Positions 47,830-52,506 of a DNA stretch of 64,000 nt are shown piece by piece. Positions within the stretch are counted from its first letter, which is position 1, and every line of letters starts with the position of its first letter. The DNA lies in assembly GCA_017547655.1 (NCBI GenBank), contig JAFYPF010000027.1, positions 9,356 to 73,355 of the forward strand, read 5' to 3'. The notes under the pieces are model-generated. The model was not told where the DNA came from, did not search any database, and saw only the letters and a program-made list of their open reading frames with translations. This stretch comes from Clostridia bacterium (GTDB lineage Bacteria > Bacillota > Clostridia > Oscillospirales > CAG-272). The translations under genes and the position numbers were made by a program.

Positions 47830-48096
47830 ATGAAGTTGAAAGGCGATTTTGTTGTTCGTAGTGTAATGGACAATAACGTTGTAATTCCCATAGGGCAAAC
47901 TGCATTAAAAATAAAGGGTATGATTCTTTTGAATGATGTTAGTATGGTAATTTGGGAATGCTTATTAAACAAGTGTGACGTTGAAACTATTGTTTCGGCA
48001 GTTACGGATAAATTTGAGGTGTCCGACGCTGAAGCTCGCACAGATATTATTGAATTTTTAGATTTGTTGCGCAAAGCGCAGCTATTGGATGAATGA
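47830..48096 (+). CDS. PqqD-family protein / RRE #2
   Basis: GMILLNDVSMVIWECL...VTDKFEVSDAEARTDIIEFLDLLRKAQLL. Confidence 0.87.
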   Translation: MKLKGDFVVRSVMDNNVVIPIGQTALKIKGMILLNDVSMVIWECLLNKCDVETIVSAVTDKFEVSDAEARTDIIEFLDLLRKAQLLDE

Positions 48097-49586
48097 ATAT
48101 GGAAGAAAAGAAATTTACACAAGACAATGATACAGAACATGTGATTGACTTATCGCTTTTATTGCATGATTTTTTTCGCGCACTTTTAAGGTTCTGGTGG
48201 TTAGTTGTAGCTCTTGCTTTTGTTTTTGGTATAACAGCTCTGTTTGTTGAAAAGAAGAATTATCAACCAATGTATAAGGCTGAAGCTACGTTTACTGTTG
48301 AAACGTACACCACCCAAAGCGGTTACACGTTTTTTTATGACAAAAATACAGCTGCCCAAATGGCGATTACATTCCCGTATCTTCTTGATAGCGACTTACT
48401 CCTTGAACGTGTAAAGGCAGATTTGGAGTTGGAATATTTAAATGGCGTTCCTTCTGCTAACGTTGTTGAAAATTCGAACCTTTTTACTTTGTCGGTTACG
48501 AGTCAATATCCGCAGTCGGCTTATGATATATTGCTGTCATTTATAAAGAATTATCCCGCAGTTGCTGAGTACGTAATAGGTAAAACTCAACTTAATATGA
48601 TATCCTTTCCCGAAGTACCGTCGACACCGTATAATAGTACACAATATATAAAATCGGGCGTTATTGGTGCGGGCGTCGGTTTCCTTCTTGGATTAGGTGT
48701 GTTGTGCTTATTTGCTCTTACCCGTTCTACGATACGCAGAGATTATGACATAAATGATAAGTTGAATACGGAATGTCTTGGTGTTATACCTATGGTTGTT
48801 TCTAAAGGAAACAGAAAGAATGTAGATCTTTCTATTCGAAGTGCTAAAGTAGGCACTCCATTTAAGGAAAGTTTTCGCGGTTTAGCGTTACAAACAACTC
48901 GATTGATGGAAGATAAGAAAGTTTTGCTTGTTACCGCCACATCTGACAACGAGGGAACATCGACCGTTGCTCAAAATCTTGCATACGCTATAGCCGACCA
49001 AGGTAAACGAGTAATTTTTATAGATTGTTGTCTTCGTGCAGATGGAAACTCGGGTTCGGTATTGGAACAGTATTTAATGGGAAATTATTCTTTGGAAAAG
49101 ATAATTGAACAAACTAAATATGAGAGCTGTACTGTATTAAAAAGCGGTTCTGCTATGACTGTCAATCAAATAAATAAAGTTTCAAAGGCATTAGGTGATT
49201 TGATTAAGAAAGCAAAGGAAATTGCCGATTACGTTATTCTTGATGCGCCGTCATGTCAGGATTTCAGTCAGATTACATTATTTGCAGAGCGTTCTGATGC
49301 GATATTGTACGTGATTCGTCAGGATTATTCGAATTTGTCTCGTATTATCAATTGCTTTGAAGACCTTGATCCGTTCGAGGCGAAGATTATTGGTTGTGTA
49401 TTTTCGGGAGTTCGTGCAGGGCTTACCGGATATGGATATGGATACGGTTATGGATATGGTTATGGATACGGATACGGATACGGTTATGGTTATGGCTATA
49501 ACAGCGTATATGGTCGATACGGAAATTACGGTTATGGCGATGAACCGACGGCTGTAAAGTCTAATACGGAGAGTAATAAGAAATGA
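48093..49586 (+). CDS. Wzz/CpsC - CpsD fusion; predicted BY pseudokinase with a Tyr-rich tail
   Basis: IDLSLLL..., two TM helices, YKAEATF; Walker A NEGTST (no Lys), A' DCCLR, B ILDAP; C-terminal (GY)12. Confidence 0.8.
   Translation: MNMEEKKFTQDNDTEHVIDLSLLLHDFFRALLRFWWLVVALAFVFGITALFVEKKNYQPMYKAEATFTVETYTTQSGYTFFYDKNTAAQMAITFPYLLDSDLLLERVKADLELEYLNGVPSANVVENSNLFTLSVTSQYPQSAYDILLSFIKNYPAVAEYVIGKTQLNMISFPEVPSTPYNSTQYIKSGVIGAGVGFLLGLGVLCLFALTRSTIRRDYDINDKLNTECLGVIPMVVSKGNRKNVDLSIRSAKVGTPFKESFRGLALQTTRLMEDKKVLLVTATSDNEGTSTVAQNLAYAIADQGKRVIFIDCCLRADGNSGSVLEQYLMGNYSLEKIIEQTKYESCTVLKSGSAMTVNQINKVSKALGDLIKKAKEIADYVILDAPSCQDFSQITLFAERSDAILYVIRQDYSNLSRIINCFEDLDPFEAKIIGCVFSGVRAGLTGYGYGYGYGYGYGYGYGYGYGYGYNSVYGRYGNYGYGDEPTAVKSNTESNKK
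49428..49499 (+). repeat. (GGN TAY)12 tandem hexamer encoding (Gly-Tyr)12
   Basis: Counted directly: gga tat gga tat gga tac ggt tat gga tat ggt tat gga tac gga tac gga tac ggt tat ggt tat ggc tat. Confidence 0.95.
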
Positions 49587-50311
49587 ATTTGTGTGATTTG
49601 CATACTCATATTCTATATGGTGTAGATGATGGATCAGATTCTTTGGATTATTCTTTGAAAATGCTAAGGAATGCTTATGCAAGCAGTGTTAGAACGGTTG
49701 TTGCAACGCCACATTATCATATCCTTGATAATTTAGAAGATAATTTGAACCGCAACAGAGTGTTGAAGGAACGCTTTTTACAGTTTAAGAGAGAAGCTTC
49801 CAATATATCTGTTGATTTGTTGTTAGGCGCAGAGGTGCGTTTTAGTGATAATTTGATTGATATGCTTCGTCGAGAAGCTGTGCCCACGATTAACGGCAGT
49901 AAATATTTGTTAATTGAGTTTTTGCCCGAGGAAGGTGCGCAGACTATCAGCGATGCATTAAAGTCAATTACGGAATGTGGGATTGTTCCTATAGTTGCAC
50001 ATCCCGAACGTTACATATCAGTATGCAAAAACCCCATGAGTGTTATTGAATGGTTGGATATGGGTTGTCATTTACAGCTTACGGGCGGAAGCGTTATTGG
50101 TGAATACGGAAGATCTATTAGGGATACTGCAAACATTTTGTTGAAAAATGATTTGGTTGTATGTATTGCCAGTGATGCTCACGGTGTAAATCGACGCACT
50201 AATTACTTGTTGGATGTTTTCGATTATTTGTCTGTTTATTATTCAAAGGCGTACGCAAGGTGCTTGATGCATGATAACCCTATGCGTATTTGCTATGATG
50301 AAAATCTATAA
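49583..50311 (+). CDS. CpsB/CapC-family PHP tyrosine phosphatase
   Basis: DLHTHILYGVDDGS, ATPH, AHPERY, ASDAH...R. Confidence 0.92.
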   Translation: MNLCDLHTHILYGVDDGSDSLDYSLKMLRNAYASSVRTVVATPHYHILDNLEDNLNRNRVLKERFLQFKREASNISVDLLLGAEVRFSDNLIDMLRREAVPTINGSKYLLIEFLPEEGAQTISDALKSITECGIVPIVAHPERYISVCKNPMSVIEWLDMGCHLQLTGGSVIGEYGRSIRDTANILLKNDLVVCIASDAHGVNRRTNYLLDVFDYLSVYYSKAYARCLMHDNPMRICYDENL

Positions 50312-51149: not shown

Positions 51150-51150
51150 T

Positions 51151-52506
51151 ATGGAAGAAAAAATAATTCGATTAGATGAGATTAATATTCATGCTTTGAT
51201 ATTGCTTATTTTAAAGAATATATTAGTTGTTATAGCAATTTGTATAGGTGCAGTATTGTGCTATTCTTCGTTTTGCAAGGTTACGTATTCTCCTCGATAT
51301 ACATCTACAGCCACATTTATGGTAAGCGCAAAGGACGGTACAAGTGCGTATAATTCGTTAACGACGACTCAAAGCATGGCGACGGTATTTGTTGAGGTGT
51401 TTCAAAGTAATGTTTTGCGTGAGAAAATAGTTGAAAATATGCCCGACAAAAAATTTGATGGCGTTGTAAATACAACGACTATACCGGAAACAAACCTTTT
51501 GATTGTTTCTGTTACATCGCCTCAACCTAACACTTCGTTTATTGCGCTGAACCTTTTGATTGATAATTACAGTTCTATTTCCGATTATATTTTTGCAAAT
51601 GCACAGCTTGAGGTTATAAAGGATCCCGTAGTACCGATAGGACCGTCTAACCCTTTGGATATCTCATCAAAATATTTGATAGTAGTATTTATTTCAGGCA
51701 TATTAGCTGTCGTTGGAATTGTTGTTATTTATTTATTCAAAGACACGCTGAAAACGCCAAAGTGCGCAAGACGTCGGATTGATGCAAAACTTTTGCGTAC
51801 TGTTGATTTTGAAAGACAGAAAAAAACGTTGCGTTCATGGATTCGCAAGAAGAAATCAGCTTTGTTGATCAACGGTAATTTAATCAGCAAAAGTTTTATT
51901 GAGCAGAATATGAGTATATGTTCTGCAGTGGATTATCATGCAAGAAAACGTAATCAAAAAATTATTATGGTGACAAGTGTTGGAGAAAACGAGGGAAAAT
52001 CAACTGTTGCATCCAATTTAGCATTGGCAATGGCGGGAAAAAACAAAAAGGTTGTTTTGCTTGATTGCGATTTCCGTAAACCGTCAATTCACAAGATTTT
52101 TGACATTAAAGAATCTATTGAGGGTTCAGATACTCTTACTGACTTTTTAATGAACGACAAAGAGGAATCATTCTCAAAATATATAACTGTTAAAAGACAT
52201 GGTGTAACTCTTTGCACAAGTAAAAAGGCAACAAAAAGCATAAATAAACTTTTAAATAATGGTAAACTGCATAGATTGCTTAAGGCATTGTCAGAACATT
52301 ATGATTATGTTATTGTTGATACTCCGCCTATGTTAGCTGCAGCAGATACAGAAACTATAGCTCCGATGGTTGATACAGTAATGTTGGTTGCGCGAGTTGA
52401 TTATATGCCGACTTCCTCGGTTATCGAAGGCGTAGAAAGATTACGTAAGAGCGCTCCTGATTTTTGCGGTTATGTTTTAAATGACTATTTGACAAAATTG
52501 TGGTAA
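51151..52506 (+). CDS. Wzz/CpsC - CpsD/CapB fusion; BY-kinase with intact motifs and no Tyr cluster
   Basis: Two TM helices, YTSTATF; Walker A NEGKST, A' LDCDFRKP, B IVDTPP; ends GYVLNDYLTKLW. Confidence 0.88.
   Translation: MEEKIIRLDEINIHALILLILKNILVVIAICIGAVLCYSSFCKVTYSPRYTSTATFMVSAKDGTSAYNSLTTTQSMATVFVEVFQSNVLREKIVENMPDKKFDGVVNTTTIPETNLLIVSVTSPQPNTSFIALNLLIDNYSSISDYIFANAQLEVIKDPVVPIGPSNPLDISSKYLIVVFISGILAVVGIVVIYLFKDTLKTPKCARRRIDAKLLRTVDFERQKKTLRSWIRKKKSALLINGNLISKSFIEQNMSICSAVDYHARKRNQKIIMVTSVGENEGKSTVASNLALAMAGKNKKVVLLDCDFRKPSIHKIFDIKESIEGSDTLTDFLMNDKEESFSKYITVKRHGVTLCTSKKATKSINKLLNNGKLHRLLKALSEHYDYVIVDTPPMLAAADTETIAPMVDTVMLVARVDYMPTSSVIEGVERLRKSAPDFCGYVLNDYLTKLW

Follow-up and report, generated by a model that had tools for sequence, protein, structure and literature searches.

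A tail-bearing, degenerate BY-kinase paralogue encoded with an intact, tail-less one in a Clostridia genome

Can the catalytic site of a bacterial tyrosine (BY) kinase and the tyrosine-rich tail on which it acts come to lie on two different gene products? In the usual picture of the cycle, subunits of one kind form a ring, each phosphorylates the tail of another, and the ring then falls apart. The question is raised by a 64,000-nucleotide stretch from the genome of a gut Clostridia bacterium (GenBank assembly GCA_017547655.1, contig JAFYPF010000027.1, positions 9,356 to 73,355 of the forward strand), here called the window, to which all positions below refer unless another contig is named. Four close-packed genes, all read in one direction, include two fused Wzz/BY-kinase paralogues, called here copy 1 and copy 2:

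48093..49586, + strand: copy 1, fused Wzz and BY-kinase-like domain, 497 aa (open reading frame (ORF), Pfam, NCBIfam)
49583..50311, + strand: CpsB/CapC-type PHP phosphotyrosine phosphatase (PF19567, 208.4 bits, E 1.4e-61)
50271..51149, + strand: membrane protein with bacterial surface immunoglobulin-like (Ig-like) domains (PF16403, E 1.8e-14)
51151..52506, + strand: copy 2, fused Wzz and BY-kinase, 451 aa (Pfam, NCBIfam, CapB/Etk alignment)

The answer that we consider probable is that copy 2 is the kinase, copy 1 its tailed substrate or regulatory subunit, and CpsB the eraser.

An earlier examination of the letters and translations, the sequence-only reading, had described two paralogous Wzz-CpsD fusions with a CpsB phosphatase encoded between them, the first with a ruined site and a tail of 16 Tyr, the second with a canonical site and no tail. 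This anatomy holds throughout. The two proteins share 27% identity over 396 columns (E 1e-33), each with a Wzz domain and a P-loop domain of the MinD/ParA/BY-kinase type, and the phosphatase does lie between them, together with the Ig-like gene. Copy 1 (Pfam Wzz and AAA_31) has two transmembrane helices and a small outer domain of about 150 residues, followed by a kinase-like domain with these landmarks:

48942..48968, + strand: Walker A remnant SDNEGTSTV, with Thr289 (ACA, 48957-48959) at the catalytic Lys position
49017..49043, + strand: Walker A' remnant FIDCCLRAD, the second Asp replaced by Cys and the Tyr-stacking Lys also lost
49236..49259, + strand: Walker B remnant ILDAPSCQ, with DAPS in place of DTPP
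49413..49583, + strand: C-terminal tail, 57 residues with 16 Tyr, mostly (GY)n, predicted disordered

The NEGTST and DCCLR lesions are borne out both by the codons (ACA in copy 1, AAA for Lys in copy 2) and by HMMER alignment to the CapB, Etk and Wzc chains, which places Thr289 on the catalytic Lys, the Cys on the second Asp of DxD and DAPS on DTPP; this last degeneration, of Walker B, goes beyond what had been noticed from the sequence. The P-loop residues Glu287 and Gly288, and a Ser/Thr after the lost Lys, are conserved. Against the TIGR01007 profile, copy 1 scores 77.4 bits, under the 108.05 cut-off, and its match reaches position 204, so the tail is included. The AlphaFold model (pLDDT 79.2) has a confident Wzc-like body and falls below pLDDT 50 for residues 443-497; Foldseek pairs it with full-length Wzc (7nhr, E 5e-24), and its kinase domain with CapAB (TMt 0.79-0.83), Wzc and BceF, in a TM range of 0.75-0.83. 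Thus, set beside the features by which BY-kinases are recognized, copy 1 has the Tyr cluster, the fold and the N-terminal Wzz part with two transmembrane helices, and it lacks the Walker A Lys, the second Asp of Walker A' and DTPP. An imperfect tandem repeat of 6 nt (49428-49499) codes for part of the tail. In metagenome run X2, a 6-nt deletion at 49464 removes one Gly-Tyr unit, and tail length therefore varies between strains.

Copy 2 is the mirror image. It scores 112.2 bits against TIGR01007 (115.1 in the genome scan), over the same cut-off, with a match that ends at profile position 189 of 204, and its AlphaFold model has a pLDDT of 85.1. Each of the three motifs is canonical:

51982..52005, + strand: Walker A GENEGKST, Lys283 (AAA, 51997-51999) invariant in 26 sequences
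52063..52083, + strand: Walker A' DCDFRKP, homologous to CapB D79 and K82, intact in 23/23 clade proteins (the clade is defined below)
52312..52329, + strand: Walker B IVDTPP, intact in 23/23 clade proteins

The protein stops 5 residues after the last strand, with no Tyr among them. By homology to CapB, DCDFRKP is predicted to supply the catalytic base and the Tyr-stacking Lys, and since copy 2 has no Tyr cluster, it could be a tyrosine kinase but would not be an autokinase of the usual sort.

How widely this arrangement is kept was followed in two samples. The first comprises the 120 best database homologues each for copy 1 and copy 2; the second is a scan of GTDB species genomes, which gave 29 loci, 24 of them (L057-L080) sharing the gene order of the window at 47-59% identity. 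The window and these 24 loci make up what we call the complementary, or derived, clade. Within it, 23 of 24 copy 1 proteins have lost the Lys, so the prospect raised by the sequence-only reading, that orthologues of copy 1 might mostly keep it, can be laid aside. D.D.RK is intact in 0/24 and DTPP in 1/24; the tails carry 10-21 Tyr in 24/24, and Y447, Y449, Y451 and Y473 are invariant (34 sequences). Of the 120 homologues that rank best against copy 1 in the database, 81 are without the Lys, including all of the best 73 (37-59% identity), where T, V, S, A or N takes its place; these 73 have 4-17 Tyr after the last strand, save for the truncated fragments P0040 and P0052. The copy 2 proteins of the clade keep the Lys, D.D.RK and DTPP without exception (23/23), and end in tails of 1-6 residues with 0-1 Tyr. 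The 120 best database homologues of copy 2, 445-451 aa long, have NEGK[ST]T in all but one (119/120) and the C-terminal motif LN[ND][YF] in 114, followed by 3-6 residues with 0 or 1 Tyr; in 105 of those 114, no Tyr follows the motif.

Both genes are under purifying selection. Pairwise dN/dS by NG86 among 12 close loci is 0.093 for copy 1 overall (from 56 of 66 usable pairs), 0.103 for its pseudokinase domain and 0.103 for its tail, 0.091 for copy 2 overall and 0.088 for its kinase domain, and 0.149 for cpsB; with dS at 1.1-1.7, near saturation, these values are rough, but they exclude a decaying gene. In 13 of 24 copy 1 orthologues (L058, L059, L061, L063, L064, L066-L068, L070, L071, L073, L079 and L080; 430-453 aa as called, with uncurated ORF starts), about 50 residues between Walker A' and B are deleted and the gene is still under purifying selection. 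Whatever role copy 1 plays, it can do without a portion of what was once the nucleotide-binding domain.

Where did such a pair come from? In a same-family sample of 300 genomes, a copy-1-like protein was found in 21, in every case at 31-38% identity, and 20 of the regions were fetched. In these distant regions, the cassette runs in the order cpsB, Ig-like gene, copy-2-type gene, copy-1-type gene, and the pairs are of what we call the ancestral type: both genes have the Lys and usually both are tailed, the copy-2 type with 4-14 Tyr and the copy-1 type with 8-18. When 97 proteins, stripped of their tails, were placed on a maximum-likelihood tree (a quick search, with SH-aLRT as the only support measure), copy-1-type and copy-2-type proteins fell into two clades, with support of 95 and 90 and mirrored internal topologies. 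The Lys-less proteins form one clade of 25 rows, including L084 (support 98), with a counterpart of 24 rows in the copy-2 tree (support 94). Two mirrored clades imply a single old duplication followed by co-inheritance, and since the distant pairs are both active and both tailed, the complementary losses came after it, in at least two lineages. Among 12 genomes of the window's own genus, the cassette is found in the window's genome and in G047, G292, G304 and G305; it is of the derived type in the window's genome and in G305 (55% identity), and ancestral in the other three (31-37%). The closest relatives of the window's cassette are in metagenome-assembled genomes named Faecousia, Vescimonas, Oscillospiraceae and Acutalibacteraceae, and the cassette may have moved between lineages.

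The sequence-only reading had proposed looking for a dead site with a tail beside a live site without one in homologous loci, and the pattern recurs. Of 47 loci that hold both genes, and with a tail-less protein defined as one with <=2 Tyr, 25 pair a copy 1 bearing a P-loop lesion with a tail-less copy 2, 21 have two canonical genes, and none joins a dead copy 1 to a copy 2 with a tail; the remaining locus, L085, is taken up below. The tree requires at least 2 origins of the lesion and at least 3 of the tail loss. The first lesion belongs to the main clade together with L084, and the second to L054, and each time the partner is tail-less. In L054 (genome G013, which also carries an ancestral-type cassette, L053), the Gly before the Lys of copy 1 has become Glu and 15 tail Tyr are kept, while the tail of copy 2 is 13 residues long and contains a single Tyr. 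The copy 1 of L084 is strongly degenerate (GEGSS), with 18 Tyr, and related to it is a second Lys-less group (GEGC/S). L083 and L085 each have a nearly tail-less copy 2 and a copy 1 that retains the Lys. It is possible that L053/L054, L084, L083/L085 and L065 represent evolutionary intermediates and a second origin. The association of site loss with tail loss is suggestive, short of proof.

The case for direct partnership comes from the structures of CapB and Wzc. In CapB octamers, the P-loop face of each subunit is contacted mostly by the tail and helix alpha2 (E23, R26, R29) of the subunit before it, and the substrate Tyr lies stacked with K82 on one side and both Pro of DTPP on the other, with D79 of DxD deprotonating it (PMC2422856; this and the other papers named by accession are cited from excerpts). 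In Wzc and CapB rings, the tail of each subunit enters the active site of its neighbour (PMC2422856, PMC8285477), and it is tail-to-neighbour-site contact that holds non-phosphorylated Wzc octamers together (PMC8285477). With this as a map, the copy 1 proteins of the clade have kept the alpha2 Glu and first Arg (24/24) and lost the K82, D79 and PP equivalents; the copy 2 proteins have lost both alpha2 Arg (23/23) and kept D, K and PP (23/23). Judged by these residues, copy 1 has kept the face of a tail donor and copy 2 that of an acceptor, including a Tyr pocket that copy 2 itself could not fill. Moreover, alpha2 E..R..R is present in only 1/25 ancestral copy-2 types, against 16/24 ancestral copy-1 types. 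Since the ancestral copy-2 types mostly lack the Arg pair, the donor/acceptor asymmetry is older than the loss of the Lys, which points to an old heteromeric arrangement.

What we infer is the following division of labor. The two genes would be co-inherited paralogues of one fused Wzz/BY-kinase of PCP-2a-like type, between which the autokinase cycle has been divided. Copy 2, with its ATP site and substrate-Tyr pocket intact and no tail of its own, would be the enzyme. Copy 1, in which the fold, the alpha2 Glu/Arg and the (GY)n tail have been selected and the ATP site and Tyr pocket have decayed, would be the substrate or regulatory subunit. Lying side by side in the membrane through their Wzz and transmembrane parts, the proteins would meet so that the tail of copy 1 enters the active site of copy 2 and is phosphorylated in trans, and the CpsB encoded between the two genes would strip the phosphates from the tail. 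The phosphatase is a full-length family match (positions 2-232 of the 234-position PF19567 profile); with 159.6 bits against the Cps4B equivalog of NCBIfam, where the cut-off is 400, it is a member of the family and not that equivalog. Of the 22 complementary-clade loci with both kinase genes, 20 have it between them. The split of enzyme from substrate advanced by the sequence-only reading is thus supported in part, in that the complementary pattern is conserved, both genes are selected and copy 2 keeps the Tyr pocket; its further claim, that the hetero-oligomer is obligate, exceeds the evidence.

Several points, to which the roughness of the dN/dS values should be added, weigh against this division of labor. 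Two clade loci, L076 and L077, have no cpsB between the kinase genes. L085 combines a tail-less copy 2 with a copy 1 that has kept its Lys, and in L065 the Lys is likewise kept, with DxN in Walker A' and a copy 2 cut by the contig end, so the losses were not strictly simultaneous. The paired losses amount to only two independent contrasts (sign test p 0.5), and the cut-off of <=2 Tyr was picked after the data had been seen. There is also a geometric difficulty: were the two proteins to alternate in a ring, every second interface, that from copy 2 to copy 1, would have neither tail nor site, and with half of its interfaces empty, a closed octamer like that of Wzc is not assured. The assembly may instead be a looser ring, or heterodimers held together through the Wzz and transmembrane parts. 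A predicted complex of copy 2 residues 197-451 with copy 1 residues 211-497 and ATP/Mg, built with a separate alignment for each cytoplasmic domain, scored 0.25 and 0.08 against a mark of 0.32, a result that speaks on neither side of the question of binding. No polysaccharide-synthesis genes (glycosyltransferase, Wzx, Wzy) were found among the ORFs scanned at 15-64 kb of the window, which comprise housekeeping genes, a giant surface protein and a radical-SAM peptide cassette; a capsule or exopolysaccharide locus of the Wzx/Wzy type (cpsABCD-like) is thus not what this part of the window holds. Finally, the genome, a 1.39-Mb metagenome-assembled draft that is 84.6% complete, has another canonical BY-kinase with a Tyr cluster and a second CpsB, and 1-3 stand-alone CpsD-type kinases are present in each of five related genomes with the complementary cassette (5/5), so the kinase acting on the tail could be one other than copy 2. 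The relevant genes of the window's genome are:

contig C20:87410-88764 (L001 1396-2876): third BY-kinase, canonical and stand-alone, 257 aa, with GEGKTT and a Tyr cluster, followed by the second CpsB
C24:137417-137575: stand-alone Wzz protein, 238 aa

No Wzz gene adjoins the third BY-kinase on C20. That copy 2 is the sole active BY-kinase of the genomes carrying the cassette was considered and, in view of the stand-alone kinases in its own genome and in all five relatives, rejected.

These same kinases furnish the best of the alternatives, in which the tail of copy 1 is phosphorylated mainly by stand-alone CpsD-type enzymes, copy 2 has other substrates, and the two genes are neighbors by descent. 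It gains from the reported relaxed substrate specificity of BY-kinases (PMC4007543), as well as from the presence of candidates, one with its own CpsB. We nevertheless regard it as unlikely. Neighborhood by descent sits poorly with mirrored phylogenies at a fixed synteny, and with the loss of the copy 2 tail accompanying the loss of the copy 1 site in both of the independent lineages; a donor face in copy 1 and an acceptor face in copy 2 are what direct docking of the two would call for.

The next alternative takes copy 1 as a scaffold, with the Gly-Tyr tail in a structural or interaction role and copy 2 as a kinase for other proteins. BY pseudokinases that act through protein contacts are documented: EcpK of Myxococcus xanthus and HfsB of Caulobacter crescentus, stand-alone proteins that have neither catalytic residues nor a Tyr tail, partner a kinase-less PCP-2 and are argued by the authors to work independently of active BY-kinases and of phosphorylation (PMC12004946). 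Fused pseudokinase PCP-2 variants have been listed by Cuthbertson et al. 2009, as cited in the same source (PMC12004946). Copy 1 resembles EcpK and HfsB in being a retained protein of BY-kinase fold whose Walker motifs have degenerated, and its tail is far longer and more repetitive than the Y-clusters of CapB and Wzc (four Tyr each in the excerpts). However, the likeness ends at the tail, which EcpK and HfsB, as described in those excerpts, do not have, and which copy 1 has kept and expanded and carries on a protein fused to its own Wzz part. A tail of 10-21 Tyr held under purifying selection, some positions invariant, is difficult to account for if phosphorylation plays no part, as is a Tyr-substrate pocket in a copy 2 without a tail to put in it. 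Unlike EcpK and HfsB, moreover, copy 1 shares its operon with a tail-less paralogue that is active and with a phosphotyrosine phosphatase, whose gene overlaps the end of copy 1 and is kept in the great majority of clade loci with both kinases; the constant linkage to an active paralogue speaks against a function that needs no active BY-kinase partner. We thus hold a phosphorylation-independent scaffold to be unlikely as well.

WNK kinases carry out catalysis through a relocated residue instead of the canonical Lys, and one could imagine that copy 1 does the same and that both proteins are enzymes. In favor of this, the fold is intact in the copy 1 model, and Glu287, Gly288 and the Ser/Thr after the lost Lys are conserved. 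A relocated catalytic Lys was sought across the homologues, and the orthologues show no conserved Lys or Arg, within the P-loop or close to it, that could take its place; the lost position is free to vary among five residues, as expected of relaxed constraint; Walker A' and B are degenerate too; and the ~50-residue deletion affects more than half of the orthologues. Activity without the canonical Lys is therefore very improbable. As for a sequencing or assembly error, or very recent decay, which a draft metagenome-assembled genome and a single-base difference between AAA and ACA might invite, the chance is negligible and the idea is discarded, since the region of the ACA codon (48827-49054) is identical in a contig of run X3 from a different study, all but one of the 24 syntenic orthologues share the lesion, as do the 73 best homologues from the database, and the frame is open with dN/dS of ~0.1.

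The setting of the cassette bears on what the kinase pair may be for. Beyond the four genes lie:

37006-44625: 2539-aa surface protein with an N-terminal signal-like segment and Listeria-Bacteroides repeats
44637..48096, + strand: upstream set of an 84-aa Cys-containing peptide, an HPr-kinase/ScmC-like protein, a radical SAM/SPASM protein, a 309-aa membrane protein and PqqD
52560..54284, - strand: convergent fused-type ABC exporter, MsbA/bacteriocin-exporter-like, without a peptidase domain

Overlaps of 4 nt join the PqqD stop to the copy 1 start, and the copy 1 stop to the cpsB start. The full upstream set, from peptide to PqqD, is syntenic in 18 of 24 complementary-clade loci; the short contigs L062, L065 and L069 show only the part within contig reach, and the set is missing in L074, L076, L077 and L078. 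Genes of the set, and the ABC exporter too, often occur near ancestral-type pairs (L039, L042, L044, L050 and L082), so that a radical-SAM/SPASM peptide-maturation set is conserved beside derived and ancestral cassettes alike. Its best NCBIfam matches, weak ones, are to members of the SynChlorMet and GeoRSP cassettes, and a literature search found no paper on the combination of radical SAM, PqqD, HPr-kinase, Wzz and tyrosine kinase. Homologues of the ABC exporter, at 57-64% identity, adjoin the cassette in most loci. The 2539-aa protein lies directly upstream of the peptide cassette in 17 derived loci (48-64% identity) and downstream in L076, and may be a candidate part of the same functional module.

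The Ig-like membrane protein, whose gene may truly start at a later ATG near 50325, is about 270 aa across loci. A homologue lies directly 5' of the copy-2-type gene in every fetched locus that has this gene, with the exception of L056, where the gene is near the contig end, and the protein may act outside the cell as a partner for both Wzz domains. We know of no Ig-like component in cps loci, nor is one mentioned in the excerpted descriptions of the CapB and Wzc loci.

A bolder version of the division between copy 1 and copy 2 can be built on this setting, though we doubt it in its full form: an obligate hetero-oligomeric tyrosine kinase, its catalysis and tail partitioned, would have evolved at least twice by complementary loss in a module of giant surface protein, radical-SAM peptide and ABC exporter, outside the Wzx/Wzy line, and the phosphorylation state of the (GY)n tail, in which as many as 21 Tyr are found, would serve as the gate on whatever the module assembles or exports.

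How does the pair compare with systems already described? Like Wzc, Etk and CapA/CapB, it has the first transmembrane segment, Wzz-type outer domain, second transmembrane segment, P-loop kinase domain and C-terminal Tyr tail, in the same fold. In Wzc, Etk and CapB, however, each subunit is both enzyme and substrate, and here site and tail are on two gene products. The small outer domain of the pair and the long (GY)n repeat of the copy 1 tail also set it apart from canonical PCP-2a proteins. PssP and PssP2 of Rhizobium leguminosarum are paralogous, interacting proteins of PCP-2-like type: PssP has Walker motifs and no Y-cluster, and PssP2 has neither Walker motifs nor a Y-cluster and was not found phosphorylated (PMC4182512). 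PssP thus resembles copy 2, but the excerpts describe no substrate-only partner for it, and the two genes lie in separate regions, Pss-I and Pss-II. CapB1 of S. aureus and PtkB of B. subtilis keep canonical motifs and Tyr clusters of their own. Unlike copy 2 in the window pair, their active partners keep the tail as well. CapB1 and PtkB are BY-kinase paralogues that show little activity or none; a role like that of a pseudokinase, next to the active copy, has been suggested for them, and neither a reciprocal loss nor a conserved tandem pair is described for them in the excerpts of that source (PMC3795738). No description of a tailed dead BY-kinase with a tail-less live partner was found in the literature searched, though supplementary tables (e.g. 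those of PMC4007543 and PMC12004946) could list such proteins. Copy 1 extends the class of BY pseudokinases, itself of recent definition, to a form that is probably still phosphorylation-dependent.

A parallel, in logic only, is eukaryotic: HER3 is a dead paralogue with a phosphorylatable tail that its live partner phosphorylates in trans. The fold and ancestry of HER2/HER3 are unrelated to those of BY-kinases. The analogy of such kinase/pseudokinase pairs has itself been raised for BY-kinases (PMC3795738). If copy 1 and copy 2 do form an obligate pair, they would be a bacterial counterpart of the kinase/pseudokinase receptor pairs.

For annotation, the locus carries a warning: relatives of copy 1 are named "AAA family ATPase" or "tyrosine autokinase", and on the evidence of their residues, they would be neither on their own. 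For evolution, it would offer a clear case in which the duplicated subunits of a homo-oligomer have been made mutually dependent through complementary loss, with living intermediates in related genomes, some pairs being both active and tailed and others having lost only the tail. And for the mechanism of the family, the lesson may be a practical one. In the usual BY-kinase, every subunit is enzyme and substrate at once, and the two roles are hard to separate experimentally. If they sit on two polypeptides, each role would be separately mutable, titratable and imageable, and the pair would test whether a ring with half of the usual tail-to-site contacts can cycle at all.

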